Under the pieces are notes generated by a model, which was given only the letters and a program-made list of their open reading frames with translations, did not search any database and was not told the DNA's origin. A DNA stretch of 64,000 bases from Candidatus Hadarchaeota archaeon (GTDB lineage: Archaea; Hadarchaeota; Hadarchaeia; Hadarchaeales; JAGGTB01), in the NCBI GenBank assembly GCA_964608515.1, contig CAZSNS010000001.1, positions 15,210 through 79,209 on the forward strand. Direction: 5' to 3'. Below are positions 15,881 through 37,665 of this stretch, piece by piece. A program made the translations under genes and the position numbers. Position 1 is the first letter of the stretch. Every line of letters begins with the position of its first letter.

Positions 15881-15890
15881 ATTAGAGAGT

Positions 15891-17399: not shown

Positions 17400-17568
17400 A
17401 GTATTCTGCTTTAACTTGTCCGGAACTCTGTTTTTATAAATATTGTTGTATTTTTCGCTTTTGATTATCGGAATAAAACATAATTTTAACCGATAAAATT
17501 CGAATATTTTTTTCAAAATTTTTCTTTGGAGTTATAAATGAAAATTATCTAACCCTAACTGGGAAAAA

Positions 17569-18336: not shown

Positions 18337-18338
18337 GG

Positions 18339-18809
18339 TCAGATTTCTACCGATAAAAGAACTTGATTTGTGGGTGAATAAACAACGGATAATCTGTCAT
18401 TTTTTTCAAGTTGTAATTTGAAGTTAAGTTTATCTCCTGAGGTATAGGTGACCAGTCCTATTTCGTTATCTCCGTTTAGGTTTGCTTGGTCTACTGAGTT
18501 AATATTTACTTTTTCCCCGTTTTTTCTTATTTCTAAGTCTTTCCAAGCTATTTCGCCATTTTCTAGAACGAACGAGTTAGGTATGTCCCCCCCTCCCTGA
18601 TGGGATAAAGTTAGTGTGTTTTCTTCGTAATGGAGTCCTAGAGAGGGTGAAATTGAATCGCGGGGAGTTGCTTCTGGTATTAATGAGATTATGGAAGCAG
18701 CCAGGAGCATAGATAAACCTATTAATATAATAATGGCTACCATTACTGAAATTCCTGCTTCTTCCGACAAGTTCTTATCATTTTCATTTCCAATTTTAAT
18801 CAAATTCAA
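18339..18809 (-). CDS. Divergent DUF1628-type pilin
   Basis: TTG start 9 nt after GGAGG. 'EEAG|ISVMVAIIILIGLSMLLAA', 'LSHQGGGD', and C-terminal 'VVYSPTNQVLL'. Confidence 0.7.
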   Translation of the reverse strand: MNLIKIGNENDKNLSEEAGISVMVAIIILIGLSMLLAASIISLIPEATPRDSISPSLGLHYEENTLTLSHQGGGDIPNSFVLENGEIAWKDLEIRKNGEKVNINSVDQANLNGDNEIGLVTYTSGDKLNFKLQLEKNDRLSVVYSPTNQVLLSVEI

Positions 18810-18921: not shown

Positions 18922-21900
18922 TCATCTGATTGAGGTGTTTATTTCTTGGGTTTGAATGTATTGGTAGACATCATTTTTCAGATCTCTTAAACCTTCGATT
19001 GAAATTCCTAGATCGTCGGTCTTTTCAGCTAAGTAATTTCTATCCTTCAAGTCTTTAACTACCTCTTCTAGATACTCAGCCCAAATCTGATTTCGACTAT
19101 GGTGAATTCCTTCTCTGATGTTTATGTCGAAATTATCTGCTCTGACTGTGTTTACTGTTTTGCTTGACGTGAAGAGGTTTAGTGGGACTGAACCGGTGAA
19201 GCTTTCCCAGGTTTCCTTTCCTCTGATTATCTTTTTGTTGAATTTAACCACTGTGAGAGGAATAGCTTCAATATGATAGTTTTCTATTTGTGGTGAGGTT
19301 GTTCCTGAATCACTATCTAAGTCCGAGGTTATTTGAACATATTTGTGAGGGTCTAACTCATCAATGCCATATTTACTCGTTCCAGAGTTCAACTGAAAAT
19401 CACCTAACCTGTCCCTTATTCTATCATCCTTAACATCGTCCAAATCCGCTCCTCTCGTCCTCCTATACAAAAGTTCAATCTCATTTTGCGACAAAGCTTC
19501 ATCAAAAATCATAAATTCATCAATAAGACCGTCAAAGTTTTCTATCATAAAATCACCAGCCGATGTGGGGATTTTACCCGTTCTATATTTTGTACCGGCT
19601 TCGGAATCATCTCTATAAAATTTCAAATATTTATTATCATAAGTGACGGCTATAAACATCCATCTATTCTCCTCCAAGTTAGCATAATTGGAGTTATCCT
19701 CCCATTTTCCGGAAAGTTCAAACCGAAGCTCATCGCCCAATGTTCTTAAAGTGTAAGCACTTTCTTTCCTTGCAAGGGTCACCGAGCGAGACAAGTTGTC
19801 GAACTGAGCCCAAAATGCTATAGTGATATTATTTTCTATGTCTAAAGAGTCATCATCTGGAACTATAAACTCATCTCCGAGTTCGAAATTTTCACCATTA
19901 TTTATTACGCCTTCATCACTTCTTTGAGTTCCATAAGTCTGTCCTTGATTGCCATTCCAAAAATCATCTCGATAATCGCTATGTGCATCTTCATCATCAA
20001 ATGTCCACCAAGATACAGGAGTTTCGGGGGGTGACGCTCCTTTAATTTCTGCTTTTATTTCTTCGTTAGAATCGATTGTTACGTCAGCGATGAGATTTTC
20101 CCAGCCCATACGCCATTTCATGGTTTTCCAAGATGTGGAATATTTTCCGGAAGTATAACCATTAGAAAGTTTTACTAAATTATCCGAAGTTTCTGTGTTT
20201 TTGAAATAACCTTTTTCCCAATCTTCTTTCAATTCCCAACTCATTTTGGAATAAGTTCCTCTATATTTTAGTTCATAAGAGTTTATTTTGAGCCTGTGAG
20301 AACTATTATCGTTTTCAAGAAGTGAAACAATCCGTACGTATTGGTGGTTTTCTGGTGCAGGTAGATTGTCCTTATACGTATTTATCCCATTTTCGAGAGT
20401 AATAGAAACACTATTATCCACATTATTTCCGTCCTGACTAACTTGTATCTTCATGGTAATTTTTTCATTTTTCCCGATTTCCACATCGGTTTTCAAGCTT
20501 CCCCAGTTCACAACATTTTCAAGATTTATCCATTCAGTTTCGTGTAAACCTGAACTATTACCTTCCTTAAGAACTAAAGAATCATTTCTAGTAACGGTAT
20601 TTTCGAAAACTCCACTAGTCCAGTCACAAGCTTGAGACCAACCGAGAACAGGATAAGGACCTTTAACATCAATTAGATTCGGTTTTTCTCTAATAAGCCA
20701 AGTATTGTCCTGATTTAAGAAAGTGCCACCTCCTTCATAGACATAAGTTTGTGATGGATATTCGACGTTTCTGGCTTGGAATTCTATTGTTCCCCAACGT
20801 TGAATTGGTGAAGCGTTTATTTTGATCCAGAAAAGGCTCGGAGTCTCAGCGGTATTTTCACCATGTAATCTCACCATGTATTGTATGTATCGATTATCTG
20901 GGAGGTGTTCGTTCTCGAAATCATTTTTATGATGTATCCATTTAGACCAATTATCAAGGTCGAGGTCTCCGTTCTCTAGATAGGGGGTGTTATCGTTTCC
21001 GGTTCTAAAGTAAACTTCCATATTGGTATTCTCCGGGGTTTTTGCTTTCCATTTTTGTTTGGTCCAGTCAATTGTTTCTCCGGCGTCGAAGGTTGATGAT
21101 TCGATAATACCTTGAGGTAAGGAAGGAACGACATATTCTATGTAAAATTCCAAATAATCTTCCATTAACAAGAAGTTTTCCTCATTATTTTCTACTAGAA
21201 GTCGGATTTTGATATTGTCTGTGGAACTGATGTAGTTTTCAGGATCAGTGAGGATGTTTTCTTTCCAAGTCTCCTCAAAGTTACTCACGTTTTCGGAATT
21301 TAAGTTCTCCCATACTGAATGGGAATAATCCCGTATTTGTAAGGTATAGCGAGCTTTGTTTTCCGATTTTAGATTCAGAGAGATTTTGATATTATCGACA
21401 AGGTATTGTTCGTTTTCGATTCTTTCAGAATCGTGACGGACGTCCAAATTATAGAAATACTGTAATGTTCGGAGCGTAGTGAGATCAATATGAATGTTTT
21501 CAGGAGATAAATCATTACCTTGAAGATCTTCGAATTTGATGCTAACGTTCTCTCCGTCAAGATATGAATTGTCAATAAAGCTAGTGACTAGTTGGTCTGT
21601 TTTGGGTAGGTTGTCTATGTATTCCCAGGAGTTTGTGGAGTTGTTCCAGACGTAGATTCCGAAGTTTTCTCCGGTGTCTGAGTATCCTTTTATTCTTATT
21701 TGGTATGCGTCTGCGTTGTCTGGTATTCCGGTCATTCTGTGTTCCCAGCGGAGGTAGTTTCCAATGTTTTCGCTCTTTATTCTCGAATAGTCTACTAATA
21801 ATTGGGTTTCGTTGAGGTCGTTTTCTAATTGTTTGTATCTTATGTGAACGTTATCGTTTTGGACGTAATCCTTGTCTAGTAGTTGGTTGAAGTTTTCTAG

Positions 21901-24900
21901 AGTGTTGGAAGTTAATGTTCCTGTTTTGTTCCAGTTTCCGGATTTGAAGTTTTCTAGATAAACTTCCACATTTTCTGAGTCGCCTGCTAGGTAGTGTTCG
22001 ATTTGGAGTGTATAATTGTCACCTTTGGGGATTTCTCCAATATTGTGTTGGACATCCATTCTATAGGCAGGATAGTTTATCTTGTATAAGAGATAATCTT
22101 CTTGAGATCGGAAAGGAGTTGTCATATTCTCCCCGATTAGTCTGACTCTGATGTTATCATTTCCTGAGATATAGTCGGCTATATTTGTCACTATCGTGTT
22201 TTCAAATGTTTTTTCTGATCCGTTGATGTTTGTTGTTTGTAGGTTTTCCCAGGCTGGTGTGTTCCAGTTGTAGATTTGCCATGTGTAGTTTGCTTGATTT
22301 TCGGATTTTAGGTTGAGAGTCAATTTTATATTTTCTATAGTATCTGGGGCTACAGAGACTTGTTCTGAATCATGGAAGAGATCCAGATAATAATGGTAAT
22401 ATGTTGACCGGACAGAACTATAATCTATATAAATATTTTCTGGTGATAAGTCGTTACCTGTTTCGTCGTCGAATTTTATGCTAACGTTCTCTCCGTCAAA
22501 ATAAGTATTATCGATTGGATAAGTGACTAGTTGGTCTGTTTTGGGTAGGTTGTCTATGTATTCCCAGGTGTTGGTGGAGTTGTTCCAGACGTAGATTCCG
22601 AAGTTTTCTCCGGTGTCTGAGTATCCTTTTATTCTTATTTGGTATGCGTCTGCGTTGTCTGGTATTCCGGTCATTCTGTGTTCCCAGCGGAGGTAGTTTC
22701 CAATGTTTTCGCTCTTTATCCTTGAATAATCGACCATTAGGTTTGTCTCTTCGAAATCATTTTCTTCCTGAACATACCTTATTCGTACATTGTCTCCTAG
22801 AATATGGCTGGAATCAACAGGGTAAGTAAAGTTTTCTAGATTGGTGGAGCTTAGACTTCCTATCGAGTTCCATCCTCCAGAATTGTTCTCAATATATACG
22901 TTTATCGTGTCGCCGTAGAGTTGTTTAACTTCTTCAGTAGTTAGCGCCCGTTCATATATTTTGACATCATCGAGGGTGCCTTGTGTATAACTTTCGTAAT
23001 GATCCATTAGATAAATATTATCTTGGTAACTTACATCATCCGTTGTGTCCGAGCTCGTGGCTCTAAGTTTTCCATCTACATAAAATTTAATTTCATTTGT
23101 GGACTGGTCTCTAACTCCTACGATATGATGCCATGTTCCGTCCAAAATATTCGATTGAGATGTAGTTACTTTGGCTTCGGTTCCTCCAGCATCTCTTAAC
23201 CATGTCCAAGCATCCGATCCGTCAAATCCTATCATAAAGAAGGGAGTTTGTCCGCTAGTAGAATGATAATTTCCGATAAAAGCGTTATTATTTGTGGAAG
23301 TATCGGATGATTTTATCCAAAAAGATATGGAGAATTCTTCTCCACTTCCCGCATATGGTTGCGTATCGGAAATTTCGACGTAATCATCACTTCCATCAAA
23401 TTCTAAAGCTTGATTATACTTGCCTTCAGTCCAAGTGGCGCCGTTGATTGTCCCGTCATTACCGTCAGCAGTGTCGTATATTGTTGTTCCTTCTCCTTCG
23501 TTCATTTTCCATTCGGAGAGCAAGTTCCCTATTTCGCTTGCATCACCGTCAATATAATGTTCGATTTGGAGGGTGTAATTGTCTCCCTTAGGGATTTCTG
23601 TAATATTGTGTTGAACGTCCATTCGGAAAGCAGTGTAATTAATTCTGTATTGTAGGTAATCTTCTTGAGAACGGAATGATTTCTTTTGGTTTTCCCCAAT
23701 GAGTCTGACTCGTAAGTTTTCATTATTTGAGACATAGTTTGTTGGGTTGGAGGTTATCGTGTTTTCAAATGTTTTTTCTGAACCGTTGATGTTTGTTGTT
23801 TGTAGGTTTTCCCAGGCTGGTGTGTTCCAGTTGTAGATTTGCCATGTGTAATCTGCTCTGTTTTCGGATTTTAGATTGAGTGTTAATTTTATGTTTTCTA
23901 TATCGCTTTGAGCTCCTGAAATTTTTTCTGAGTCGTGGTAAAGGTCTAAAGAATAGCGGAAATAATGACAGTTTATAGTAATATCATTGATTGTGGGTGT
24001 GTCTCTAGAATCTTCTGTAGATAGGGTCAATTCGCTTATTCTTATATATCTGGCATCTTTGAGAGAGGAAATATCGTAAGTATTTGTCCCGTCCGTCAAG
24101 CTTTTAGTTATATTATCTTTTACTGTTTGGAAACTGTTATCACTCACTTGGAGAGTTATAGATGCCGAAGTATTCTCAGGTATATTAGCAGTGACTTTAA
24201 GGTTGTCCCACTCAACTTTTTCACCGAAATTATGAGGACTGGATTTCCACCGGTTTTTCTTGATATGGGCGAGTTCATCGTGTGATATTTTCCTGATTTC
24301 TTCGGGTGTTAGGGCGGCGTTGTAAATTTGGAATTCGTCTATTGTGTGTTCTATATCGTTTCCTCTTAGTGTTATCTCGCCGTTTAGATCTGCTAGATTG
24401 GCACTGATTGTTCTGCTGGCTTCTAGATTTCCATTTACATATTCTCTAACTTCGCTTCCGTCGTAGACTCCAGTGTAATGATTCCATTCTCCTAGATTCA
24501 CTCCCATATCTGTGTTTCGAGCCCAGAAGCCTCCATCGCTTGTGTTTAAGCCGTTACTTTCATCTTCTGCGATCCATCTTGTGTAAATTCCTTTGATGCT
24601 GTCACTTACTGTTTCAGTCCTTATGGTGTACGTGTCTCCGTCAGGTTGTTTCACTTGCCATGAGACATAGTTTGACCAGTTTACATTCTGGTTTTCGATA
24701 TAGAACCAGAAAGAGATTGTAACTGGAGCTTCGCTAACTGCTTTATCTAGACTCGTAGATTTTGGAATACTTACAGAATCATCTACCCCGTCAAAGTCAA
24801 GGGATTGACCATATTGACCGCCCTTTATTCTAGTACCGTCGTTTATCGTGCCTTGATTATTTCCAAAGTTGTCATGAACGGTTGAACCTGAACCTGATTC

Positions 24901-27900
24901 AAAAGGATAATAAATAGTTCCGGTAGACCAGAGGCTTTTAATCTCATTTTCAGTTAGGACCCGGTTAAATATTTGAGTGTCATCTAGTTTACCCAAAAAT
25001 GCTTGTCCTATGTCAAAACCTCCTTCAACTGAATCTTGTTCTTGCCCCAACACTAGAGAACCTCCCGATTCGAGTGAATAACCCGATTTTAGAGTTCCGG
25101 AATATTCGAGCGATCCGTCTTTGTAGAGTTTTGTACTTCCGTCGGAGCTTCTCCAAGTAACTGTAATGTGGTGCCAATTTCCGTCGTTTGCTGATACTCC
25201 AGTATCGACATATGATCCGTTTATATAGATTCTAAAGCTGTTATAATCGAAGATTAAAAATTCGTTATTACTTCCTGAGACTGCATAAGAGATAGGTGTT
25301 CCGTTCTTAGATGTATTTGAGGAGTTCATCCAAAAACTAGCTGTTATTTCGTTGGAAGGGAAGGTATTAACGGGATTTTTAACCATGTAATCATCTTTTC
25401 CGTCAAAGAATAGCCCGGTCCCGATTTTGCCAGTTGTCCAGTTATGAGACCCGTAAGTTTCAATATTGTAATAATGCAGTGCTGGTGAGTGCGTGGAATA
25501 ATCCGTTGTTAGGTGAGAGTTTATTCGTATGTATCGAGCGTCAGAAAGTCCAGATAATGCGTCCGTTGTTATTCCATCGTTAAGAGTAATCCAACCAGTT
25601 TCATCTTCAATTGTGGAAAAACCATCGTTGCTGACTTGAACTTTTGCTTCAATATTTTCTCCAGAAGCTATTGTTGCATTTGCTTCAAGTTGTTTCCATT
25701 CCACTTTTCTTCCGAAATCATGACTGTGAGTGGTGTGTGAACCATCTTTTATTGTGTAAAGTTCATTCTCGTAAATTTTTGAAATTTCTGTTCGGTTGAT
25801 TGAGCGGTCGAAGAGTTGGACTTCGTCTATAACACCGTTGGTCATGTAATGTTTGTTTGGAGTTGCACCAGATCCTATTAGTAGGTCACTTGAACCGGTG
25901 TCCATAGTGTTGGTCATAGTACTATCACTGGTTATTAGGGTATTGTCAAAGTAGATTTCAGTTCCAGTCGAATCTTTTCTTATGATTATTTGATGCCATT
26001 CCCCAATTCCGAAGTTTACTCCTGAAGTTGCGTGTAATGATTCCGTACCACCTCCCGTTCGGTATTGGAATAATATTCCAGAACCGTCACTATCTACTAA
26101 AACTCTGGGATACCAACCGTCTCCATTAATCCCTCGCACTATACCATGATAACCGCTAGCATCTTCTCCACCAGCAGAGCCTTGTCTTTTAAACCATGCC
26201 GTAATTGTGATTTCGTCATTGATACTAGTGAGACTTGGACTGTTATTGATTCTAGTATAATCCCATTTCCCATTGAAGAAAATACCATTATCATACTTTC
26301 CTGTTGTCCAATTGTTCGGCCGGTGGCATTGTAGTTCAAAAGAATTTAGTATGGGGGTGTGTCGAGAATCATTTGTCGATAGACGGAAAAAGACTCGTCC
26401 ATATCGGGCGTCGGGGAGGGTGGAGATATCGTTTGAACCGTTGGAAAGGTTCATCCATCCGGTGTCATCTTTTATTGTGACGAATTCGTCAGTACTGGTT
26501 TGAACTCTGGCTTCTATAGTTTCTCCGGTATCGATTGAGGCCTCTATGTAGAGGTTGTCCCAGTCTGTTGGCGTTTCGAAGTCGTAAATTTTTGTTCTCC
26601 AAATATTTTTCCTTATATGAGCGAGCTCATCATGTGCGAGAGTGTTTATCTCATTAGGTGAGAGTGCTTTGTTGAATATTTTAACTTCATCGATTCTTCC
26701 GTCGATTGGGTCTGTGCCTGGAGAGTCGTATCTATCCCCTATTGAAAGTTTTTCACTTCCAAAGCTCTGACTGACTGAAGCGGTTGCTTTCAAATCTCCA
26801 TCAAGATAAAATCTAGCTTCAGAATTCGGGGCGTCATAAACTCCTACTAGATGGATCCATTCCCCTTGCGGTATTGCTTCTCCACTTACTGTCGCATTTC
26901 CGTCAAAAGTGGAAAAACCATAAATATCATCGTCCGCATCCCAATAAAGTGTCATAGTGTCTCCGTTGCTACCATCCTGAACGTCAACAAATCTATTCCA
27001 ACTTGTATCTCCTGCGCCATCTACATAGACCCTGGCTGATATAGTGGCAGTATTTCCACTTTTTAGTACATCTTCAGTCACTTTAACGTGATCATCTACT
27101 CCATCAAAGTTTAGAGAACTTCCATAATATCCAGCACTTGTTCTAGTAGCTCCATTTATCGCTCCGTCATTATTCCCATAATTGTCGTAGGCAGTAGTTG
27201 GGGAACTAGTTTCGAATGGATAGTAAGCTGTTCCTGTAGACCAAAGACTTTTAACCTCATTTTGAGTTAAGGGTCTTTCAAAGATTTGAAATTCATCGAT
27301 TTTTCCATTAAAGTATTCGTGTGGTCCTCTATCTCCGTCGTAGGAACTTGCTTCTGATCCTGTGGCCATAAAGCCGTATCTGGTGGTTCCATCTCCTAAG
27401 CTGTTTCCACCCCAACTTTTTTCGCTGTCCAGAGTTCCATCTACGTATATTTTTTTGGTGGAAGTATCTGGATTGTAGGTGGCTGTTACGTGATGCCATT
27501 CTCCATCGTCAACATCGATGCTTCCTGACATATCGTCGACCCCACTACCGTCGTCTGTGTTCCAAGTTACTTTTCCGTTAGTTCCTGAACTTCCGACTCC
27601 GAATCTGAATATTTCGCTTCTATCATAACTTGCAATTATACCTGTCGGGTCGGTTGTTTTTATCCAAGCTGAGACTGTGATACCATCGGGGAAGTAGGTG
27701 TAACTGTTTTGAAGAGCTCCGTAGTCATCTTTTCCGTCGAACTCCATACCCACTCCACATTTTCCAGGAGTCCAATTATGAGATCCATAAGTGGATAAAC
27801 TATAGTTCCGCAAAACTGGAGAATGTAAAGAACTGTCAGTTAGGAGTCGCGATTTAACTCTTACATAACGAGAATCGGAAAGTCCCGATAAGTCTTTTGT

Positions 27901-30900: not shown

Positions 30901-33900
30901 TAGCGCGCGATCGAAAATCTGGACCTCGTCTATCGTTCCGGTATAGTTCCACTCAGGATATGAAACATCGTCAGTTCCTATTTTTATAGATGATTCGCTG
31001 GCGTAATTCCCGTTCCAACCTGTTTCTGTGGCTTCTAAGCTACCGTTTATGTATAATTTTAATTCACCAGCTCCAACGTCAGCTATTCCGACACCATGGT
31101 ACCAATTACTCGTACCCAGAGATGCTGAAACTCTGCCGGTACTGTTTCCGTTGTTAGAATTGAAAACTAAATTCGAACCGTCAACATACAAACTCAAACC
31201 ACTGTACTGGGGAGGATTTCCACCTACAATCTGACCGTCATTCTTTTTATTAAACCATGCGGAAAAAGTATAACTCTGACCTTGACTATTACTCCATCCT
31301 GTATCAACATAATCATTCCAACTGGTGAAGTGTAGACCGTTATCGTATTTTCCCTTCGTCCAGCTGGAGGATCGGTAACATTGGAGTTCAAAGAAGGATA
31401 GTGATGGCGTGTTTCTTGTGTCGTTGGTTGAAAGTCGGAAGGATACGCGACCGTAACGGGCTGGAGTTAAGCTGGAAATATCATTAGAACCATCGTTAAC
31501 GGAGAACCAGCCAGTATCCCCAGCTATCGAGGAAAATTCATCCGTACTAGATTGAACTCTCGCTTCTATAGTTTCACCAGACCCAATCGAAGCGTTTATA
31601 TACAAATCGTCCCATTCCATTGGTTTTTCGAAATCGTATATTTTTGATCTCCAAATGTTATTCTTGATATGTGCAAGTTCATCTTTAGCCATATAACCTG
31701 TTTCTTGGGGGGTTAATGGTCTCGCATAAATGCCGACCTCATCGATTTTGCCATGATAACCATATGTAGATGAGGTACTATCGCCAGGCATTCCGATTCG
31801 GAGAGGGTTGGCGGTGGCAGTGATACTTGAAGGTCCGGAAGAAGTATTGGAATCTTCTTGCCCGTTAATATAGATTTTCAAATCCGTTCCGTTGTAAACT
31901 CCCATAACATGATACCAGTTATTTGCAGATAGGTTAGTGCTGGATTCGACCGAATACCTACTCCCATCACCATATACCTTAAATAAAACATTTGAATCGT
32001 TTAAACCTAAGCTATAACCTTCTACATTCGAATAATCGTATTTAGAAGCGATAAATTGTTCTCCAGATGAAACTGATGTTGGTCTTATCCAAGCTTCCAC
32101 CGTTAGATTATTGGACAAATTCAAGGTAGAATCATCAGGAACCTCCACATAATCATCACCAGCAAAACTCAAAGAACGACCATAAGAACCACCACTCTCT
32201 CTTGACGCTCCATTTATTGTACCATCGTTATTCCCAAAATTATCATAAACCGTTGAACCAGAAGTCTCTTCAAACGGATAATAAGCAGTGCCTGAAGACC
32301 AGAGACTTTTAATTTCGTTTATAGAAAGAGCTCTATCAAATATTTTCACTTCGTCAATTTCCCCGTTAAAAAAGTATCGGGGTCCATAAGGATCTGCTCC
32401 GACATAATAAGGAGTGTCACTCAATCCATTACCTATACTAATGTTTCTTTCCCCGACTTTCGCTCCATCTACATAAAACTTCGCCCAGTTATCTTCCACA
32501 TCAAACGTTAAAGCTGCATGATGCCAAGTATCGGCTGAAATAGCAGAACTAGTACAAACACTATCGTAAGCATATCCACACAAAGTTCCATCAGTTTTTA
32601 GCCAAATACCCATTTCAGGACCCCAATAATCAGAGAAAAGAGCCATTTGCTGAGAGGGAGTGGCGTCCGGGGTTTTGAACCATAACGAGATTGTGGAAGT
32701 GCCAGTGTCTGGATCCCAATTGCTTATACTTCCTAAATCAACATAATCTCCTGTATTTATTTCCCCACTCGTCCCTTGTTGAATTGCGACAGTTGAAAAA
32801 CCAGTATCAGCGTGACCTCTCTCAGAGTCACCCACCTGATCTTCTTCAGCGTAATAAGTAGTTTCAGAAGAGTTATAAGTTCCAGCACCTCTAGCCCAAT
32901 ACCCATCTACCCCTGTCCCCGTGTATCCGTCTATTACTACGTCGGGGGCAGAGGAAAAGGAATAAGAAAAGGTTTCAGAAGAATCATCTACTCCATCATT
33001 ATTTCCATCTGTCGGGTGTTTATCTACATGATAATCCGTCACGTTGGCATATCCCTTTCCTCCGATATCTTCAAAAGCGATCCATCCAATATTTTCAGAA
33101 ATCGTAGTTTTTCTTGATTCTCCAATTTCTAATTCGAGCTGGAAACTGTTAGAGGAGAGACTATTAGCAACAGAACTCGTAAACCAACCATTATTATAAG
33201 TATTCACAGTATGGAGCAACGCTGGCGCGGTTGAAAAAGAGTGCGAGAAATTAACAGTTTCACCACCAAAGCTTTCCCCACCCCTATGAACACTTGAGGT
33301 CTCCAAATGCCCAGCCTCTATCTTCGTCCCATCGGATAAAACATGGTCCCCTTCCTCCATAACAATATACCCGATGTCCTCAGAGCTATGGCCTTGGTCG
33401 TCGGGTTCTTCCATGAAGATTTCGAAACTATTAGAGGTTACGTTTCTAACTCTAACGTCTATTGATTGTCCACCGTTTCGAGTTTCTATAAAAGCAACCA
33501 CGACGGGGTCGGTAAAGTTATGATCTAAATTAACCGTATTTACGGTACCTCCGTCTATAGTTGTGGAAAGATTTACTTGACCGGATTCCATAAAAGTAGT
33601 GTTCTTTTTAGAACGCACCGCACTACCACACTTTCCATCAGTATAAGGATAATAATTAACATCCAAAGAATGAACTCTAGGCGAAACGCTCGTATCACTA
33701 GTTGACAAGTCAGAAACGAGACGCACATATCGACCATTCGGCAAATTCGATATAGAGTAAGAGTTCTTACCGTCATCCAAAGAAATTGTCTCTGTAGTTA
33801 CTCCCGAACTATGATTTCCATCATCATCAACTTGAACATCCACAGAAACCGACCCACTTCCGCCTAACGTCGTCGTCGTTTCTAAATTCCTCCAATCCGC

Positions 33901-36900
33901 TTTCCTAGCGCCTACATCCCGCCATTCAGATGTATGTGTTCCAGTACCATGATGAAAATTTACATAAACCGTATAATCCTCCACCTCCCCAAAATTCATG
34001 GTTTCGCAAGAACTTGGATATCCATTAAATTCTTCTGATACTCTCATTAGTGTGGGTCCGCCTACTGCGTCGTTGGGTACGGTTATGGTTCCGGATACTG
34101 TACCTCCGTCAGTATCTGTGCTTCCTAGGTCGGTGGCCTCTCCAGATTCGAGACTCCCGTCCTGATCCCAGTCAATCCAGACTCTTCCATATTGAGTCCA
34201 ACTGCTTTCTAATCCTATCGTTACTGTTATGTTGTAACTTTCCCCTCTTGTTACAGGAGTAACTATGTCAGTGAAGTCCTCGTAACCGTCGGTAGTGTCT
34301 GGACCGGGTTCTGAAGCCCAATTGATGGTGTTGAATTCTACTCGTCTAATCCAATCATCATCATTTCCCTCGTCTCCAGAACTACAATAACTAGATGCAT
34401 TCACATCCGCGTCTCTTCTCTCTCCTACATAAACTGTATAATCTTCTACTTCCCCCCAACTCATATCTTCGCAAGAACTTGGATATTCATAATATTTTTC
34501 TGATACTCTCATTAGTGTGGGTCCGCCTACTGCGTCGTTGGGTACGGTTATGGTTCCGGATACTGTTCCTCCGTCGCTACTAGTGCTTCCTAGGTCGGTT
34601 GCTTCTTCTGATTCGAGACTTCCATCGTGATCCCAGTCGATCCAGACTCTTCCGTATTGGGTCCATGAGTCTGACATACCTATTGTTACTGTTATTGTGT
34701 AACTGTTTCCTCTTCTTACGGAAGTAATTGCGTCGGTGTGGTCTTCGTAGCCGTCGGTAGTGTCTGGACCGGGTTCTGATTGTATATTGATGGTGTTGAA
34801 TTCTACTCGTCTAATCCAGTCATCATCATTTCCACCGTCTCCTGAACTGCAATAAAGCGAGGCGTCTATATCTACATCCTCTAGTTTCTCCATTGGAGTG
34901 TCTAAAGCGATAGAACTACCAGTGGTAGTTGTGTCTACGAAAGTTCCACTTTCCCAATCAGAATGTTTGTCCCAAGAAGTTGAGGAAAGCGATAAACTTC
35001 CATCATTCCCGTGACTCGTTTGATCGTTAACTGTTCCTCCATTAATTTCCTCAAATTTCCAAAAACCAGCTAGATCTTCGCCTTTAAGAGAAATACTTCC
35101 AGAACTTTTATACGGAGTTATGCCTGTGTTCCATGATCCTTCTAGCCAGTCCGATTGTGAGCTCCATTGTGGTTGTGATCGGATAGGTCCATGATTGTTA
35201 CGGTCTGTTTTATCGTGCACAGTGTGTCCGCTTCCTTCGTCGAGTTTCCAGAATGCTTGCATGTTTTCTGCGGTGAGTGAGATGCTTCCAGGGTTTAGCC
35301 CCGTGGCGACATCTGGACCGTAAGTCCCGTTTTTCCATTCTGTTTGAGTGTTCCACAGGTAGTCTCCTGCCAGGATTGTCCCATGATTATTCCAGTTTGT
35401 ATTGTCTTTTGCGATATGTCCTTGGTTTTCTTCGAATTTCCAAATCCCTTGACCGTCTTCTCCTAATAGTTGTAAACTTCCTGTGTTTTTGTAGGGGGTG
35501 ATGCCTGTGTTCCATGATCCTTTTAGCCAGTCTGATTGTGAGTTCCATGATGGTTTTGATAGGATTGTTCCGTGATTGTTGTAGTCTGTGTTGTCGTGGG
35601 CGGTGTGTCCTGTTCCTTCGTCGAATTTCCACAGTCCTTGTGTGTTTTCTGCGATGAGTGATATGTCTCCTGGGTTTAACCCTGTGGCTATATCTGGAAG
35701 ATAAGTCCCGTTTTTCCACTCAGTTTGATTGTCCCATTCATGCTCACCTGCCATTATCGTTGCGTCATTGTTCCAATCAGTATTATCATACGCTGTAGGT
35801 CCTTGATTCTCTTCAAATTTCCAAATGCTTCTTGCATTTTCTCCTAGTAGTTGTAAACTTCCTGTGTTTTTGTAGGGGGTGATGCCTGTGTTCCATGATC
35901 CTTTTAGCCAGTCTGATTGTGAGTTCCATGATGGTTTTGATAGGATTGTTCCGTGATTGTTGTAGTCTGTGTTGTCGTGGGCGGTGTGTCCTGTTCCTTC
36001 GTCGAATTTCCACAGTCCTTGTGTGTTTTCTGCGATGAGTGATATATCTCCTGGGTTTAACCCTGTGGCTATGTCTGGAAGGTAAGTTCCATCTTCCCAA
36101 TCAGTTTGGGTGTCCCACCAATAATCTCCGGCAAGAATGGTTCCGTCATTGTTCCAATCGGTATTATCATGAGCCACATGACCTTGGTTTTCTTCGAATT
36201 TCCAAACACCCTGAGCGTTTTCACCCAACAACTTGAGGGTTCCAGGAGTTTTATAAGGAGTTATGGAAGTATCCCAACCTTCACCAGTCCAATCAGACAA
36301 AGAATCAAAAAATAAATTATCGAAACTCTTTATTACCCTTTCAGAATCGACTTCGTAATATTGTCCGTCGTCTGTGTCTAGGTAGTCGGTTGTTGTCCCT
36401 GGTACTTCTGTTCCGTTTTCGATTGTGGTTTTGTTTTCGTATAGGTTGTCGATTCCTCCGTAGTTTTTTTCGTAAATGTTTTCGTATGCGTTGTTGTCTG
36501 CTTGGGCGTTGGGGAAGTTTTTTGTGTTTCCCTCGTGGATTGTTTCGTCTTGTACGTATCTGAATTTTGGAGGGATTGTGTTTTCGCTAATGTTTTCGTA
36601 AACTCCGTTTGGGGTTTGGGCGTTTTCGTAGTTTGTTGTGCCGGGGTCTCCTAATTGTTTGAGTCCGGTGATTAGGGGGTCGGGTTCTAAACTTACCGGA
36701 TAATCCGTATTTTCGGTCCAAAAACTAGAATCGACTTCGTAATATTGTCCGTCGTCTGTGTCTAGGTAGTCGGTTGTTGTCCCTGGTACTTCTGTTCCGT
36801 TTTCGATTGTGGTTTTGTTTTCGTATAGGTTGTCGATTCCTCCGTAGTTTTTTTCGTAAATGTTTTCGTATGCGTTGTTGTCTGCTTGGGCGTTGGGGAA

Positions 36901-37665
36901 GTTTTTTGTGTTTCCCTCGTGGATTGTTTCGTCTTGTACGTATCTGAATTTTGGAGGGATTGTGTTTTCGCTAATGTTTTCGTAAACTCCGTTTGGGGTT
37001 TGGGCGTTTTCGTAGTTTGTTGTGCCGGGGTCTCCTAATTGTTTGAGTCCGGTGATTAGGGGGTCGGGTTCTAAACTTACCGGATAATCCGTATTTTCTG
37101 AAATATAATCCGGTACGACTTCGTAATAATTTCCATCGTTAGAATCTAGATAATTTGTACTGGTAAGGTTTTCACCTTTTATTAACCTAGTCTTATTTTC
37201 GTCAAGGTTGTCTGGGTCGGGTCTGATTCCGTTTTCCAAAATTACACTGCCAGTGGCTTCGTTTTCACCGAAGGTATAATTTTCAGGTTTTTCTGGAGGT
37301 TTTACTATTTGTGAGGGGATACCTGTTTTAATTATCCAGTTTTCTTGAATCCATGATACATCTTTTCTCCTCAGTTGTGGGTCTATTAAAATCCTGCCGG
37401 ATCCTTTGGCTCCGGGCACTAAAGGCCCGGTCTTACTGTACATGGGTATGGATGTGCCTACTGATTCTCCTTCGGTCAAGTTTTCGATACTATTTTGTAT
37501 TTGTGTGAAACGTTCGGAAACTTCCTCCATCGTTTCTCCCTCGGATTTGTGAATTTCCGATTCCATGTAATTGGGATACCAAGTTATGAAAAAAAGAATA
37601 GCTATACTTATAGCGACAAGCGCAGCTGTAACAGCTACTTGTCCCCGTTGCCTGGAGAATACCAT
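18922..37665 (-). CDS. Giant (6,247 aa) pilin-like modular surface protein, a putative mega-adhesin
   Basis: A single uninterrupted 18,744-nt frame in AT-rich DNA. N-terminus 'MVFSRQRG|QVAVTAALVAISIAILFF'. Contains 13 LamG/ConA-like domains (motif '..G.IDE[VF].I[FY].R.L[ST]..E'), 2 GEVED, 1 PA14, H-type-lectin-like repeats, and 11 copies of an unnamed ~100-aa module. Confidence 0.95.
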   Translation of the reverse strand: MVFSRQRGQVAVTAALVAISIAILFFITWYPNYMESEIHKSEGETMEEVSERFTQIQNSIENLTEGESVGTSIPMYSKTGPLVPGAKGSGRILIDPQLRRKDVSWIQENWIIKTGIPSQIVKPPEKPENYTFGENEATGSVILENGIRPDPDNLDENKTRLIKGENLTSTNYLDSNDGNYYEVVPDYISENTDYPVSLEPDPLITGLKQLGDPGTTNYENAQTPNGVYENISENTIPPKFRYVQDETIHEGNTKNFPNAQADNNAYENIYEKNYGGIDNLYENKTTIENGTEVPGTTTDYLDTDDGQYYEVDSSFWTENTDYPVSLEPDPLITGLKQLGDPGTTNYENAQTPNGVYENISENTIPPKFRYVQDETIHEGNTKNFPNAQADNNAYENIYEKNYGGIDNLYENKTTIENGTEVPGTTTDYLDTDDGQYYEVDSERVIKSFDNLFFDSLSDWTGEGWDTSITPYKTPGTLKLLGENAQGVWKFEENQGHVAHDNTDWNNDGTILAGDYWWDTQTDWEDGTYLPDIATGLNPGDISLIAENTQGLWKFDEGTGHTAHDNTDYNNHGTILSKPSWNSQSDWLKGSWNTGITPYKNTGSLQLLGENARSIWKFEENQGPTAYDNTDWNNDATIMAGEHEWDNQTEWKNGTYLPDIATGLNPGDISLIAENTQGLWKFDEGTGHTAHDNTDYNNHGTILSKPSWNSQSDWLKGSWNTGITPYKNTGSLQLLGEDGQGIWKFEENQGHIAKDNTNWNNHGTILAGDYLWNTQTEWKNGTYGPDVATGLNPGSISLTAENMQAFWKLDEGSGHTVHDKTDRNNHGPIRSQPQWSSQSDWLEGSWNTGITPYKSSGSISLKGEDLAGFWKFEEINGGTVNDQTSHGNDGSLSLSSTSWDKHSDWESGTFVDTTTTGSSIALDTPMEKLEDVDIDASLYCSSGDGGNDDDWIRRVEFNTINIQSEPGPDTTDGYEDHTDAITSVRRGNSYTITVTIGMSDSWTQYGRVWIDWDHDGSLESEEATDLGSTSSDGGTVSGTITVPNDAVGGPTLMRVSEKYYEYPSSCEDMSWGEVEDYTVYVGERRDADVNASSYCSSGDEGNDDDWIRRVEFNTINWASEPGPDTTDGYEDFTDIVTPVTRGESYNITVTIGLESSWTQYGRVWIDWDQDGSLESGEATDLGSTDTDGGTVSGTITVPNDAVGGPTLMRVSEEFNGYPSSCETMNFGEVEDYTVYVNFHHGTGTHTSEWRDVGARKADWRNLETTTTLGGSGSVSVDVQVDDDGNHSSGVTTETISLDDGKNSYSISNLPNGRYVRLVSDLSTSDTSVSPRVHSLDVNYYPYTDGKCGSAVRSKKNTTFMESGQVNLSTTIDGGTVNTVNLDHNFTDPVVVAFIETRNGGQSIDVRVRNVTSNSFEIFMEEPDDQGHSSEDIGYIVMEEGDHVLSDGTKIEAGHLETSSVHRGGESFGGETVNFSHSFSTAPALLHTVNTYNNGWFTSSVANSLSSNSFQLELEIGESRKTTISENIGWIAFEDIGGKGYANVTDYHVDKHPTDGNNDGVDDSSETFSYSFSSAPDVVIDGYTGTGVDGYWARGAGTYNSSETTYYAEEDQVGDSERGHADTGFSTVAIQQGTSGEINTGDYVDLGSISNWDPDTGTSTISLWFKTPDATPSQQMALFSDYWGPEMGIWLKTDGTLCGYAYDSVCTSSAISADTWHHAALTFDVEDNWAKFYVDGAKVGERNISIGNGLSDTPYYVGADPYGPRYFFNGEIDEVKIFDRALSINEIKSLWSSGTAYYPFEETSGSTVYDNFGNNDGTINGASRESGGSYGRSLSFAGDDYVEVPDDSTLNLSNNLTVEAWIRPTSVSSGEQFIASKYDYSNVEGYSLGLNDSNVLFKVYGDGSRYSVESSTNLSANNWYHVMGVYNGTDLKIYINGQEDSNTSSGPSSITATANPLRIGMPGDSTSSTYGYHGKIDEVGIYARPLTPQETGYMAKDELAHIKNNIWRSKIYDFEKPMEWDDLYINASIGSGETIEARVQSSTDEFSSIAGDTGWFSVNDGSNDISSLTPARYGRVSFRLSTNDTRNTPSLSFFELQCYRSSSWTKGKYDNGLHFTSWNDYVDTGWSNSQGQSYTFSAWFNKKNDGQIVGGNPPQYSGLSLYVDGSNLVFNSNNGNSTGRVSASLGTSNWYHGVGIADVGAGELKLYINGSLEATETGWNGNYASESSIKIGTDDVSYPEWNYTGTIDEVQIFDRALTHSETQKLYNTEFMAMNYEWYETSTYYSNNSHPSTESEFDEFFNDKNNGVTFGGHGSWAREQIRWHDSSWNAKPTYLPADGYAWKAEGHIYAPESGTYTFAIDSDDASDLFIDGTNVANWYGGHGIANDWSHNGTISLSKGYHKIKVRMEEGGGGDGVRIGWQKPSDSSISLMVEDFNDIRNAFHTTNHYDFGRKVEWKQFEWDTTIESGEDVKAKIQVSNDGFSSIQDETGWLNLESETSPYTITQLDNARYVRIKTRLLSNNSTHSPAVHDYRISAYGSFNWEKGKCGTGLFFDGKDDRVNVPDDSSVSFGETGEEMTVSFWVYPKDLSEEVGILQKSSEYLINQEDGGKIWIRTWGGNNGGTSSAVLSEDEWQHVTVTWDVGSGGSIYYNGEKIQDYSNSDTSSETNNPLHIGKSTWGNFNGKIDEVQIFNRELTGSEVKSLWSTGTAYYPFEASSGSTILDNFGNNNGTNNGATRTSAGYYGRSLDFNASGDIVEIPDDTSLDLESYTYSFWIKPQEGPTGSWRQVMIKGDGPTGGGRTPGVWLRPDDMGLHVKHSTASGSQVGPTQTGTVPVGEWTHVIINSTGDSGTISVYLDGTLDSQTNHSADLVTNNQNLHIGNSPDYNGVDAMIDEFQVYPRSLTPSEINSLAHDELAHIKKNVWRSKVYDFENPMDWDNLVINASLNGETIEAKVQSSSDDFSTVDGDTGWFTVSDGVNDISSLTTARYGRVFFKLSTTDSRNTPILNNFELQCYRPNNWVTGYYGEALEFDGRGDYVEVPDSSSLDTDKITMAAWIKTSASGTSNMVMNKEGTYEMAAGTDGISLAINASGCSSWCNGWMFSGEGSINADEWTFVATTWDGDVGKGYINGSHVVTVDPSEGDGNIVNTDRNLGIGARDVDGTPSSFFNGEIDEVNIFERDLTTSEIQKLYENELYTIENGFHITKNYDYEQTVSWNTLEARSTIDSNEDIRAKVQVSDDAFSTIKDETSWLNLTDGTSTKDLSGLSDSRYVRVKSRLLTDSSLHSPVLRNYSLSTYGSHNWTPGKCGVGMEFDGKDDYGALQNSYTYFPDGITVSAWIKTTDPTGIIASYDRSEIFRFGVGSSGTNGKVTWNTDDGSGVDDMSGSIDVDDGEWHHVTATYNPDTSTKKIYVDGTLDSEKSWGGNSLGDGTTRYGFMATGSEASSYDGDRGPHEYFNGKIDEFQIFERPLTQNEVKSLWSTGTAYYPFETSSPTTAYDNYGNNDGAINGATRTSAGYYGSSLNFDGVDDHVKVTEDVLKSGNTATISARVYVDGAGDTSWNRFVDVQDGSNGDTMTLYWDADDDIYGFSTFDGNATVSGEAIPQGEWIHLVGVYDAPNSEARFYLDGDLKATASVSQSFGSEKLSIGDRYDSPGTDPIDGRIDEVKIFNKALSPNEINTLAHDELAHIRKNIWRTKIYDFETPTDWDNLYIEASIDTGETIEARVQTSTDEFVTIKDDTGWMNLSNGSNDISTLPDARYGRVFFRLSTNDSRHTPILNSFELQCHRPNNWTTGKYDNGIFFNGKWDYTRINNSPSLTSINDEITITAWFKRQGSAGGEDASGYHGIVRGINGDGWYPRVLVDSDGSGILFQYRTGGGTESLHATSGVNFGIGEWHQIIIRKDSTGTEIYFDNTLITSDSTMTNTMDTGSSDLLIGSGATPNKHYMTNGVIDEVQLFDRSINRTEISKIYENELYTIKDGSHTTHSHDFGRKVEWKQLEANATIASGENIEAKVQVSNDGFSTIEDETGWITLNDGITTDALSGLSDARYIRINSHLTTDYSTHSPALHYYNIETYGSHNWTTGKIGTGLFFDGKDDYMVKNPVNTFPSNEITASFWMNSSNTSKNGTPISYAVSGSNNEFLIFDYNSFRIYINGSYVDTGVSANDGNWHHITVTWRSSDGSTKLYKDGSLEYSGTLKSGYSLESGGSLVLGQEQDSVEGGFDIGQAFLGKLDDTQIFNRVLTENEIKSLWSTGTIYYPFESGSGSTVHDNFGNNQGTINDGTRIKGGQYGQSLDFDGVDDSVSIPKSTSLDKAVSEAPVTISFWFYIENQNVNWSNYVSWQVKQPDGDTYTIRTETVSDSIKGIYTRWIAEDESNGLNTSDGGFWARNTDMGVNLGEWNHYTGVYDGSEVREYVNGNLEASRTISANLADLNGEITLRGNDIEHTIDEFQIYNAALTPEEIRKISHDELAHIKKNRWKSSPHNFGEKVEWDNLKVTANIPENTSASITLQVSDNSFQTVKDNITKSLTDGTNTYDISSLKDARYIRISELTLSTEDSRDTPTINDITINCHYFRYSLDLYHDSEKISGAQSDIENIKLTLNLKSENRADYTWQIYNWNTPAWENLQTTNINGSEKTFENTITSNPTNYVSNNENLRVRLIGENQKKSFRSQEDYLQYRINYTAFRMDVQHNITEIPKGDNYTLQIEHYIDGDASEIGNLLSEWKMNEGEGTTIYDTADGNDGTINGATWTEGKYNQALEFDGSDDYVEISDTQPYAGSGEEFSISFWIKSSDTSTNNNAFIGNYHSTSGQTPFFMIGFDGSDAWTWLRDAGGTEAKVTTSQSNILDGTWHHIVGVRDQSTNEIKFYVDGKLRATSSDTTDDVSYQDNIYLMDHYESYTQGTLDDVKIYERALTTEEVKQLYGDTINVYIENNSGGWNSIGSLSSTNLENFTYPVDSSHILGDNVRIRYVQEENDFEETNLMVDYSRIKSENIGNYLRWEHRMTGIPDNADAYQIRIKGYSDTGENFGIYVWNNSTNTWEYIDNLPKTDQLVTYPIDNTYFDGENVSIKFDDETGNDLSPENIYIDYSSVRSTYYHYYLDLFHDSEQVSVAPDTIENIKLTLNLKSENQANYTWQIYNWNTPAWENLQTTNINGSEKTFENTIVTNIADYISGNDNIRVRLIGENMTTPFRSQEDYLLYKINYPAYRMDVQHNIGEIPKGDNYTLQIEHYLAGDSENVEVYLENFKSGNWNKTGTLTSNTLENFNQLLDKDYVQNDNVHIRYKQLENDLNETQLLVDYSRIKSENIGNYLRWEHRMTGIPDNADAYQIRIKGYSDTGENFGIYVWNNSTNSWEYIDNLPKTDQLVTSFIDNSYLDGENVSIKFEDLQGNDLSPENIHIDLTTLRTLQYFYNLDVRHDSERIENEQYLVDNIKISLNLKSENKARYTLQIRDYSHSVWENLNSENVSNFEETWKENILTDPENYISSTDNIKIRLLVENNEENFLLMEDYLEFYIEYVVPSLPQGIIESSTFDAGETIDWTKQKWKAKTPENTNMEVYFRTGNDNTPYLENGDLDLDNWSKWIHHKNDFENEHLPDNRYIQYMVRLHGENTAETPSLFWIKINASPIQRWGTIEFQARNVEYPSQTYVYEGGGTFLNQDNTWLIREKPNLIDVKGPYPVLGWSQACDWTSGVFENTVTRNDSLVLKEGNSSGLHETEWINLENVVNWGSLKTDVEIGKNEKITMKIQVSQDGNNVDNSVSITLENGINTYKDNLPAPENHQYVRIVSLLENDNSSHRLKINSYELKYRGTYSKMSWELKEDWEKGYFKNTETSDNLVKLSNGYTSGKYSTSWKTMKWRMGWENLIADVTIDSNEEIKAEIKGASPPETPVSWWTFDDEDAHSDYRDDFWNGNQGQTYGTQRSDEGVINNGENFELGDEFIVPDDDSLDIENNITIAFWAQFDNLSRSVTLARKESAYTLRTLGDELRFELSGKWEDNSNYANLEENRWMFIAVTYDNKYLKFYRDDSEAGTKYRTGKIPTSAGDFMIENFDGLIDEFMIFDEALSQNEIELLYRRTRGADLDDVKDDRIRDRLGDFQLNSGTSKYGIDELDPHKYVQITSDLDSDSGTTSPQIENYHIEAIPLTVVKFNKKIIRGKETWESFTGSVPLNLFTSSKTVNTVRADNFDINIREGIHHSRNQIWAEYLEEVVKDLKDRNYLAEKTDDLGISIEGLRDLKNDVYQYIQTQEINTSIR
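18925..19265 (-). other. Giant protein C-terminal core segment homologous to 44151..44915
   Basis: 'HHSRNQIWAEYLEEVVKDLKDRNYLAEKTDDLGISIEG' versus 'THRKTTEAWENYLEVRKDELTQEGYDVQADGLKLTINS'. Confidence 0.55.
19460..20015 (-). other. LamG13, inserted inside an 'RY[VGI]R'-type module
   Basis: 'PVSWWTFDDEDAHS...GLIDEFMIFDEALSQNEIELLYRR', flanked by the two halves of a module. Confidence 0.7.
20640..20805 (-). other. Giant protein middle core segment homologous to 44151..44915
   Basis: 'WGTIEFQARNVEYPSQTYVYEGGGTFLNQDNTWLIREKPNLI' versus 'YGYLEFAANNFFYSDQTYIYESGAVVVSENNSWMRSSPTLI'. Confidence 0.55.
21130..23970 (-). repeat. C-terminal 313-aa super-repeat: copy 1 interrupted by LamG12, copy 2 complete, copy 3 partial
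   Basis: DNA offset is 939 bp (21602 vs 22541) and 1563 bp (22201 vs 23764). About 150 bp is perfectly identical around 21630-21780 vs 22570-22720. Confidence 0.85.
22906..23525 (-). other. LamG12, inserted inside super-repeat copy 1
   Basis: 'IEHYIDGDASEIG[NLLSEWKMNEGEGTTIYD...GTLDDVKIYERALTTEEVKQLYGDT]INVYIENNSGGW' versus the uninterrupted 'IEHYLAGDSENVEVYLENFKSGNW'. Confidence 0.8.
24265..32770 (-). other. LamG array: LamG1-11 interleaved with ~100-aa 'RY[VGI]R' modules, organised as about 4 super-repeats
   Basis: Recurrent junctions: 'SLWS[ST]GT.YYPFE' (4x), 'HDELAHI[KR][KN]N' (4x), 'K[LI]YENELYTI' (2x). Confidence 0.85.
30385..30870 (-). other. PA14 domain
   Basis: 'YLPADGYAWKAEGHIYAPESGTYTFAIDSDDASDLFIDGTNVANWYGGHG...GYHKIKVRMEEGGGGDGVRIGWQKP'. 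Confidence 0.75.
32780..33590 (-). other. Three H-type-lectin-like beta-sandwich repeats
   Basis: 'NLDHNFTDPVVVAF...VRNVTSNSFEIFMEE', 'VNFSHSFSTAPALLHTV...SLSSNSFQLELE', 'ETFSYSFSSAPDVVIDGY'. Confidence 0.5.
33961..34875 (-). other. Two tandem GEVED domains
   Basis: 'YCSSGD..DDDWIRRVEFNTIN...YGRVWIDWD.DGSLES...GGPTLMRVSE....SSCE.M.[WF]GEVEDYTVYV' occurs twice (about 34425-34875 and 33961-34410). Confidence 0.75.
34900..36310 (-). repeat. Seven ~63-aa Trp-rich units (alternating A/B types, pair period 381 bp)
   Basis: Units start 'G[VLI]WKF[DE]E..G..A.DNTD.NN.GTI'. 35468-35664 is identical to 35849-36045. Confidence 0.85.
36343..37098 (-). repeat. In-frame tandem duplication, period 384 bp (128 aa), 372 bp perfectly identical
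   Basis: 36343-36714 is identical to 36727-37098. Encodes 'NTDYPVSLEPDPLITGLKQLGDPGTTNYENAQ...DDGQYYEVDS' twice. Confidence 0.9.
37366..37665 (-). other. Giant protein aa 1-100: class-III-signal / pilin-like N-terminal module
   Basis: Aligns with the N-terminus of the 44151..44915 protein: RG, a hydrophobic helix, 'YPxY', 'F..IQ..', 'EGE', 'PLV...K.G'. Confidence 0.6.

Follow-up and report, generated by a model that had tools for sequence, protein, structure and literature searches.

A discontinuous pilin-like DUF7289 core with two large internal inserts of lectin-type and repeat modules in a giant predicted protein of a Hadarchaeota archaeon

The giant open reading frame (ORF) described here encodes 6,247 amino acids (aa) and is situated within a type IV pilus gene cluster of Candidatus Hadarchaeota archaeon. 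It was found in a stretch of 64,000 nucleotides (positions 15,210 to 79,209 of contig CAZSNS010000001.1, assembly GCA_964608515.1), which as a whole is called the window below. The N-terminal 96 residues and the last ~630 residues of the giant protein form one complete discontinuous domain of the DUF7289 family. This domain, of about 250 aa, has an N-terminal sequence resembling a class III (prepilin-type) signal peptide and a helix of ~57 residues, followed by a beta-rich head whose end coincides exactly with the C-terminus. In the giant, the chain exits the head twice and returns each time: 5,518 aa are inserted after strand beta-2 and 471 aa after beta-7. That the protein is built as a discontinuous DUF7289 core with internal cargo we regard as highly probable; the combined reading, in which this insert-split core acts as a pilus-borne lectin adhesin, seems fairly probable. 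The coordinates of all features are listed in Table 1.

An earlier note on this DNA, made from the letters alone, proposed that three short pieces of the giant protein, here denoted a, b and c, align in order with a small protein encoded elsewhere in the window. The likely start of the small protein is the ATG at position 44151, the ORF itself (44124..44915) comprising 263 aa. In BLASTP, this 263-aa ORF matched the giant protein at aa 2–90 (piece a, E = 3e-12), aa 5624–5668 (piece b, E = 1e-7) and aa 6140–6211 (piece c, E = 0.28, non-significant in the pairwise comparison), the order of the pieces being collinear. Because piece c was left at this E-value, a family-wide profile was sought. It has 262 nodes and was built from 31 diverse uninterrupted small members of DUF7289. 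The profile is tiled, over nodes 1–261, by exactly three collinear stretches of the giant: residues 1–96 cover nodes 1–96 (63.1 bits), residues 5615–5667 cover nodes 93–145 (39.5 bits) and residues 6139–6246 cover nodes 154–261 (29.3 bits), all three matches being significant. In the control, which consisted of 300 residue shuffles of the giant and its reversed sequence, the best domain score was 4.5 bits. When the concatenated core (a+b+c) was compared with the family by HHalign, as the note had recommended, the probability was 99.9% (E = 8e-34, 253 columns). Thus the three-piece alignment holds, and the doubt expressed in the note itself, that pieces b and c might lack significant similarity, is settled by the family profile, against which both are significant, and not by every pairwise comparison.

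A different origin of piece c was considered, as BLAST shows that aa 6090–6220 of the giant are similar to aa 1296–1429. The possibility that piece c is a mere tail of a repeat module was rejected: the similarity is carried by a module whose end is at aa ~6134 and declines past that point, and piece c alone (the last 126 aa) matches the family in HHalign with a probability of 94.9% (E = 4e-8).

The concatenated core aligns with the small protein from end to end, with 29% identity over 245 aa, and retains the conserved Trp and Gly columns of the family. At the same time, the giant core is no nearer to the small protein (28–29% identity) than to other family members. Hence the small protein, described initially as a paralogue, is a distant member of the same family and not a close paralogue. 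The core of the giant ends one residue before the stop codon, all cargo being internal. The measured insert lengths, 5,518 and 471 aa, are close to the initial estimates of ~5,520 and ~460 aa.

As judged from sequence, the giant is assigned to DUF7289 by the custom 31-member profile and not by the Pfam model (PF23960). The small protein passes the cut-off of the latter, the relatives with inserts match it in their C-terminal half, and the giant is undetected. Neither this model nor any pilin family model recognizes the giant, and domain-based annotation would miss such proteins, the core pieces being too short to score.

The fold of the domain and the position of the junctions were addressed by AlphaFold2. 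The model of the small protein, which used a 31-sequence alignment, has a predicted local distance difference test score (pLDDT) of 91.6 and a predicted template modelling score (pTM) of 0.83. It features a helix at residues 7–63 (~57 residues), followed by 13 strands in a beta-rich head (69–75, 91–96, 102–107, 116–120, 123–127, 131–135, 140–144, 150–161 and onward), with a second helix at 202–221 and the last long strand at 232–253. Site 1, the point at which insert 1 enters the giant, corresponds in this model to the 5-residue link 97–101 between strands 91–96 and 102–107, and site 2 to the 5-residue link 145–149 between strands 140–144 and 150–161. The modelled core of the giant, with both inserts removed (residues 1–100, 5619–5672 and 6133–6247), has pLDDT 92.2 and pTM 0.86, and the same order of helices and strands as in the small protein, starting with the helix 4–62 and the strands 68–74 and 89–95. 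Both junctions are coil, and the confidence dips there to about 74–85. Hence both models are confident and place the junctions in short inter-strand connections, outside the core of the fold, so the proposal of loop insertions into a small scaffold is largely supported by the predicted structures. A domain of 260 residues whose halves stand 5,518 residues apart would be a natural example, and an extreme one, of a domain assembled from discontinuous parts.

To place the giant within its family, 1.84 billion representative proteins were searched exhaustively with HMMER, which yielded 339 DUF7289 members (E <= 0.001). Profile domain hits were chained in the best 150 of these 339 representatives and in the giant, and 128 proteins in which both ends of the profile were covered (127 library proteins and the giant) formed the full-length set. 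Of the 128 proteins, 53 have 40 aa or more inserted internally, and 50 of these 53, the giant included, carry an insert at site 1 (profile nodes ~90–109). The giant apart, the site-1 inserts form a continuous range of sizes, 125–1,626 aa, and the proteins carrying them are 387–1,916 aa long; the survey for members of intermediate size, advised in the note, has thus produced a continuous size series. Among the 128 representatives, two inserts are present in the giant alone, whose length is over three times that of the next protein in size. The only other user of site 2 is P0093, where the insert comprises 487 aa and includes Laminin_G_3. Two proteins (P0042 and P0047) carry their insert at a third site (nodes ~187–204), at which P0040 also breaks with a three-sequence profile.

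The flanks of site 1 are alike in all proteins with an insert there, with ...G.LSV.P before the insert and ...G.veF...N..YP.QtYvYE.GAVI after it, and the sequence at the piece-b junction of the giant is seen also in 16 relatives. In most insert carriers the protein ends 1–3 residues past the end of the profile. Site 1 is a permissive site throughout the family, at which about 40% of the representatives carry carbohydrate-binding cargo. In a crude and weak neighbour-joining tree of the cores, members with and without inserts are intermingled (about 20 parsimony changes), which suggests that the cargo has been gained or lost repeatedly. A word-indexed search with the small protein retrieved three close homologues only, and a scan of genomes with the three-member alignment retrieved a single locus, in a metagenome-assembled genome (MAG) labelled Candidatus Hadarchaeota. 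The nearest relative of the small protein (L001) is in a MAG with this label and shows 78% DNA identity.

The inserted sequence consists of lectin and repeat modules, as had been noticed initially and as the domain matches confirm. Insert 1 opens with a linker, followed by six repeats of ~126 aa (aa 152–892) and two GEVED-containing repeats (aa ~927–1235). Then an H-type lectin match (aa ~1470–1531) is situated in the otherwise unassigned stretch aa 1350–1637. The remaining part of the insert contains twelve Laminin_G_3 domains alternating with a beta module of ~118 aa, a PA14 domain (aa 2323–2422) and GH114_assoc-like repeats (aa 4563–5542). In total, the giant has 13 Laminin_G_3 domains, 12 copies of the ~118-aa module, two GEVED repeats, PA14, the H-type lectin match and the GH114_assoc-like repeats. 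The copies of the ~118-aa module are found at aa 1229–1349, 1995–2110, 2431–2547 and so on, up to 5514–5632, 5695–5816 and 6076–6145 (window ~19231–33981). This module scores below the Pfam thresholds and has a weak resemblance to discoidin and NedA-like galactose-binding domains alone. Each insert is closed by one copy of it just before the chain re-enters the core. The inserts of relatives feature CBM96, DUF2341 and Laminin_G_3, and across the family the cargo is predicted to be overwhelmingly carbohydrate-binding.

We call the core pilin-like on the basis of its N-terminal motif, its predicted long helix and the gene neighbourhood. The giant protein starts with MVFSRQRG followed by QVAVTAALVAISIAILFFITW (RG/QVAV...), and the N-terminal region of the small protein reads DDRG followed by ISVVVGTLLVISIILAAFAAI (RG/ISVV...), the slash marking the break after the RG motif; in both cases about 20 hydrophobic residues follow. 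Read by eye, both proteins thus have the elements of a class III signal peptide, that is, a charged stretch, a [KR]G motif and ~20 hydrophobic residues. Both predicted models have the long alpha-1 helix and the beta-rich head.

The window is archaeal chromosomal DNA with a G+C content of about 39%; in addition to an archaellum operon, it encodes aIF-2B, TFX and an AdoMet synthetase of the archaeal type. Within the pilus cluster, the genes of the ATPase and the platform protein, together with three candidate pilin genes, span 10765..17516 on the minus strand, and two further candidate pilins flank the giant directly. Of these five small genes with pilin-like N-termini, the one at 16917-17516 is the only one above the Pilin_N cut-off of Pfam. 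The protein encoded directly downstream of the giant is homologous to small pilins of related loci. The small DUF7289 protein adjoins the KaiC-like ATPase and the archaellum operon, and this arrangement is kept in locus L003.

Similar neighbourhoods are observed in relatives. A gene of a ~150-aa Pilin_N pilin precedes the large, insert-bearing DUF7289 gene in L005, L006/L007 and L008, and the same locus contains genes of a PilB3-type ATPase, a T2SSF platform protein and a KaiC-like (DUF7125) ATPase; a pilus ATPase together with a platform gene is thus found in the window and in all of these loci. The KaiC-like protein of the window is 25–64% identical to the products of the DUF7289-adjacent KaiC-like genes of L003, L005, L006 and L008 (25–35% for L005, L006/L007 and L008). 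In L004 (307-7974), a protein of 2,555 aa that has a Pilin_N domain at its N-terminus is followed by an 804-aa DUF7289 member and then by a 321-aa DUF7289 gene, so the window is not alone in encoding very large proteins with a pilin head. The loci are of the "clade 2 / system 2" PilA type of euryarchaeal pili, and earlier work on archaeal "system 2" loci mentions large adhesin-like proteins but does not dissect them (PMC4858521; bioRxiv 10.64898/2026.04.22.720090).

For the giant protein we infer the function of a pilus-tip adhesin; adhesion borne by a pilus is the role to which we incline, with modest confidence. The N-terminus would be processed by a prepilin peptidase at RG/QVAV..., and the helix would dock into the type IV pilus formed by the neighbouring PilB3-type ATPase, the platform protein and the candidate small pilins. 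The most likely position would be the tip, or priming end, of the pilus, because a load of ~700 kDa cannot pack into the shaft. The ~45 lectin-type modules might then form a long loop, tethered at both ends and binding glycans on surfaces or on other cells. The small 254-aa member encoded beside the KaiC-like ATPase could be a cargo-free version of the same subunit.

Several observations weigh against this interpretation. The Pfam model PF23960 (cut-off 27 bits) has no match in the halves of the giant, in its N-terminal 207 aa or in the concatenated core, and the comparison of the latter with Pfam yields nothing even at E <= 10. There is no Pilin_N (PF07790) or TIGR02537 match in the giant or in its concatenated core, the sole pilin match of the small protein is a sub-threshold one to UpsA (E = 0.003, 17.7 bits, cut-off 130), and the window contains no gene for an A24 prepilin peptidase. 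A PDB sequence search matched no solved structure, and Foldseek searches of PDB with both models gave no hit at E <= 0.001, pilin or other. The model of the giant core was guided by the alignment of small homologues, hence it is no independent test of the fold. Searches for an orthologue of the giant retrieved only a 651-aa fragment of the same gene (with piece a and the region from b to c), nothing (with the concatenated core) and only weak Laminin_G matches (in a metagenome scan with the last 638 aa), and no orthologue emerged from these searches. Given the near-perfect repeats in insert 1, its exact length may depend on the assembly. Finally, a literature search for DUF7289 found no paper, and the family is uncharacterised.

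In the strongest of the alternative explanations, the giant is an adhesin anchored in the membrane or envelope, outside pili, the helix either anchoring it or forming a short stub similar to a pseudopilus or bindosome, and the head serving as the base of the lectin loop. The missing pilin family matches and the lack of resemblance to any solved pilin fold are consistent with it, and so is the location of the small member beside the archaellum operon and not beside pilin genes. On the other hand, at least four independent loci conserve the association with genes of a PilB3-type ATPase, a platform protein and a Pilin_N pilin, and the length of the helix is typical of alpha-1 of pilins. We regard this explanation as rather unlikely.

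The architecture itself might also be read differently, with no true insertion at site 1: the N-terminal helix with a small hairpin would be one unit, the C-terminal domain would be another one, and insert 1 would be an expanded linker between them. Indeed, the description of site 1 as a loop rests on the order of strands in the models and not on the pairing of beta-2 with beta-3, and many relatives match the DUF7289 model of Pfam over the C-terminal part only. However, the pTM values of both models indicate that the parts are confidently placed relative to each other, the link at site 1 is just 5 residues long in uninterrupted members, and site 2, as well as the third site occupied in P0042 and P0047, is internal to the C-terminal part however it is defined. 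Hence a linker is improbable, and the insertion into a discontinuous DUF7289 core is preferred at site 1 as well.

As for the assembly, NCBI has a record of a 6,247-aa product identical to the giant and encoded on an 88.6-kb contig, and an independent contig is 100% identical to the window over 17284-21007, covering piece b, insert 2 and piece c. The giant ORF contains a perfect (100%) tandem duplication of 384 bp at window positions 36343-37098 and two more arrays, 35106-36206 and 33961-34855, with periods of 381 and 465 bp and 84–85% identity. These repeats are either very recent duplications or a region prone to assembly errors. An artefact, in which such repeats have joined the 5' end of a small DUF7289 gene, an unrelated adhesin and the 3' end of another gene, would agree with the perfect duplication, with the arrays and with the second assembly breaking within the repeats inside the gene, at about aa 5553, but it is very improbable, as the frame is unbroken over 18.7 kb, the split architecture recurs in 52 other representatives from unrelated samples, and the junctions around insert 2 are confirmed by the independent contig.

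Insertion of a domain into a pilin head is a principle already known in bacteria. In GspK/PilK, ComZ and TadG/CpaL, the head contains an inserted domain, after which one or more C-terminal strands return, and a position at the tip has been proposed (PMC6561018, PMC8179133, PMC13533445). The inserted domain is an alpha-domain between beta-3 and beta-4 in GspK, and a beta-solenoid of ~380 aa ahead of the last strand in ComZ of Thermus (PMC6561018, PMC13533445); for ComZ and GspK, the insertion of domains in tip pilins is established (PMC6561018). The giant resembles GspK and ComZ in having a pilin-type helix, a beta head, cargo between strands and returning C-terminal strands. This is a similarity of design and not of ancestry: neither Pfam nor Foldseek gives a match to GspK or ComZ for the giant core or the small protein. 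Unlike GspK, ComZ and TadG, the giant is archaeal, has a different head fold and has site 1 after beta-2 rather than late in the sheet, and while each of those proteins has one inserted domain, the giant carries up to 5,518 aa at a site, and ~45 modules at two sites. What is new, then, is that in archaea a pilin-like scaffold carries inserts recurrently at one hairpin, that its members form a continuous series of sizes, and that one extreme member has two inserts.

The second known case is that of modular pilins. In Streptococcus sanguinis, PilB carries a vWA module and PilC a concanavalin-A-like lectin module, and a tip location has been proposed (PMC8179133, PMC9934059). As in these proteins, in the giant a pilin module would present an adhesion module, and the lectin superfamily is the same as in PilC of S. 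sanguinis. However, in modular pilins the module is grafted on the C-terminal end, whereas the cargo of the giant is inserted, so the giant falls outside the definition by C-terminal grafting (Raynaud et al. 2021). The largest modular pilin surveyed has 860 residues (PMC8179133), compared with 6,247 in the giant.

Finally, the giant may be compared with PilY1/PilC and with the archaeal "PilY-like" proteins containing DUF2341, which are predicted tip adhesins (PMC4858521). PilY1 is held at the tip by the addition of its C-terminal beta-strand to a minor pilin (PMC13533445). Common to all these cases is a large adhesin in a type IV pilus locus, and DUF2341 is present in some DUF7289 inserts. The strand addition by PilY1 may be likened, as a hypothesis, to the C-terminal strands of the giant that would complete its own head. 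Still, PilY1 is not a pilin and donates its strand in trans, whereas in the giant the adhesin and the scaffold are parts of one chain, and a Pfam scan of the giant finds neither DUF2341 nor the PilY1 propeller.

Because many relatives use site 1 of the giant, the arrangement looks like a means by which archaea mount adhesins on type IV pili. DUF7289 thereby gains a testable role, that of a scaffold coupling large adhesins to PilB3-type archaeal pili, which would explain how the "large adhesin-like proteins" of these loci could be attached. Decoration of pili by insertion into pilin heads appears to have arisen in archaea too, in addition to bacteria with their GspK and ComZ, as a convergent design; in the archaeal case the head fold has no solved relative, and one hairpin has been reused repeatedly. 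A further idea, which we consider speculative and doubtful, is that the beta-2/beta-3 hairpin is a dedicated cargo-display site of archaeal PilB3-type pili and that the return of the C-terminal strands acts as an in-cis checkpoint. The head would be complete, and able to prime or cap the pilus, only once the adhesin of up to 5,500 residues had been made and exported. If so, this would be a single-chain archaeal counterpart of the in-trans addition of the C-terminal beta-strand by which PilY1 licenses pilus assembly, and the giant would carry one of the largest domain insertions in any protein fold.

Table 1. Parts of the giant protein, the small DUF7289 member and pilus-related genes of the window. 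Positions are those of the window; residues are those of the giant protein.
Feature	Position	Strand	Residues	Remarks
Giant ORF	18922..37665	minus	6,247 aa	DUF7289-family pilin-like core with two inserts; from the ORF list, ATG start
Core piece a	37378..37665	minus	1–96	Class III signal-peptide-like N-terminus, long alpha-1 helix, beta-1, beta-2
Insert 1	20824..37377	minus	97–5614	5,518 aa
Core piece b	20665..20823	minus	5615–5667	beta-3 to beta-7; family motif GxxEFxxxNxxYPSQTYVYExG
Insert 2	19252..20664	minus	5668–6138	471 aa; 2–3 copies of the ~118-aa module and one Laminin_G_3 (aa 5931–6062)
Core piece c	18925..19251	minus	6139–6247	Remaining strands, helix alpha-2 with the invariant family Trp, C-terminal strand
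Small uninterrupted DUF7289 member	44151..44915	plus		254 aa; Pfam PF23960, 34.8 bits (cut-off 27)
KaiC-like ATPase	43314..44111	plus		AAA_25/KaiC, weak DUF7125; usual neighbour of DUF7289
PilB3-type type IV pilus assembly ATPase	13246..15780	minus		T2SSE, PilB3_N, PilB3_C
FlaJ/TadC/PilC-type platform protein	11404..13221	minus		NCBIfam ArlJ/UpsF matches
Candidate pilin	10765-11247	minus		TIGR02537 just sub-threshold, 19.1 (cut-off 20)
Candidate pilin	15891-16463	minus		No family match; N-terminal sequence, weak similarity to a pilin of L008
Candidate pilin	16917-17516	minus		Pilin_N 28.8 (cut-off 25.2); TIGR02537 above cut-off
Candidate pilin directly downstream of the giant	18339..18809	minus		156 aa; Pilin_N E = 0.00045, 21.4 bits (cut-off 25.2), sub-threshold
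Candidate pilin directly upstream of the giant	37850..38311	minus		153 aa; Pilin_N E = 0.006, 17.9 bits (cut-off 25.2), no stretch passing alone

Several other genes of the window are worth mentioning. By the downstream pilin of the giant, between pilin genes, there is a gene of an S24/S26-type (type I) signal peptidase-like protein (17569-18336, plus strand). This placement is repeated in L002, and the enzyme is not of the A24 type, which would be expected to process class III signal peptides. The region upstream of the giant and of its small pilin encodes a 987-aa protein (38429-41392, minus strand) that is hydrophobic at the N-terminus and contains three PKD-like domains as well as a Rha78A-like Ig domain. 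It adjoins a 174-aa ORF (41567-42091, minus strand) with no convincing family match. Both proteins might belong to the same locus as additional surface components.

Two stand-alone archaellin genes (Arch_flagellin), at 42338-42997 on the minus strand and 59291-60073 on the plus strand, are situated outside the archaellum operon, the former lying between the cluster of the giant and the KaiC-like/DUF7289 pair. The archaellum operon has two genes of FlaI-type (T2SSE) ATPases on the minus strand, 46633-48330 and 49135-50841 (565 and 568 aa), with a 258-aa ORF without a family match between them. The FlaI-type duplication is kept in L003 (573 and 568 aa, with a 167-aa gene in between). Many proteins of the window are strongly acidic, and the FlaC-like protein (53236-54153, minus strand) has long Glu-rich runs; the source organism may be halophilic.

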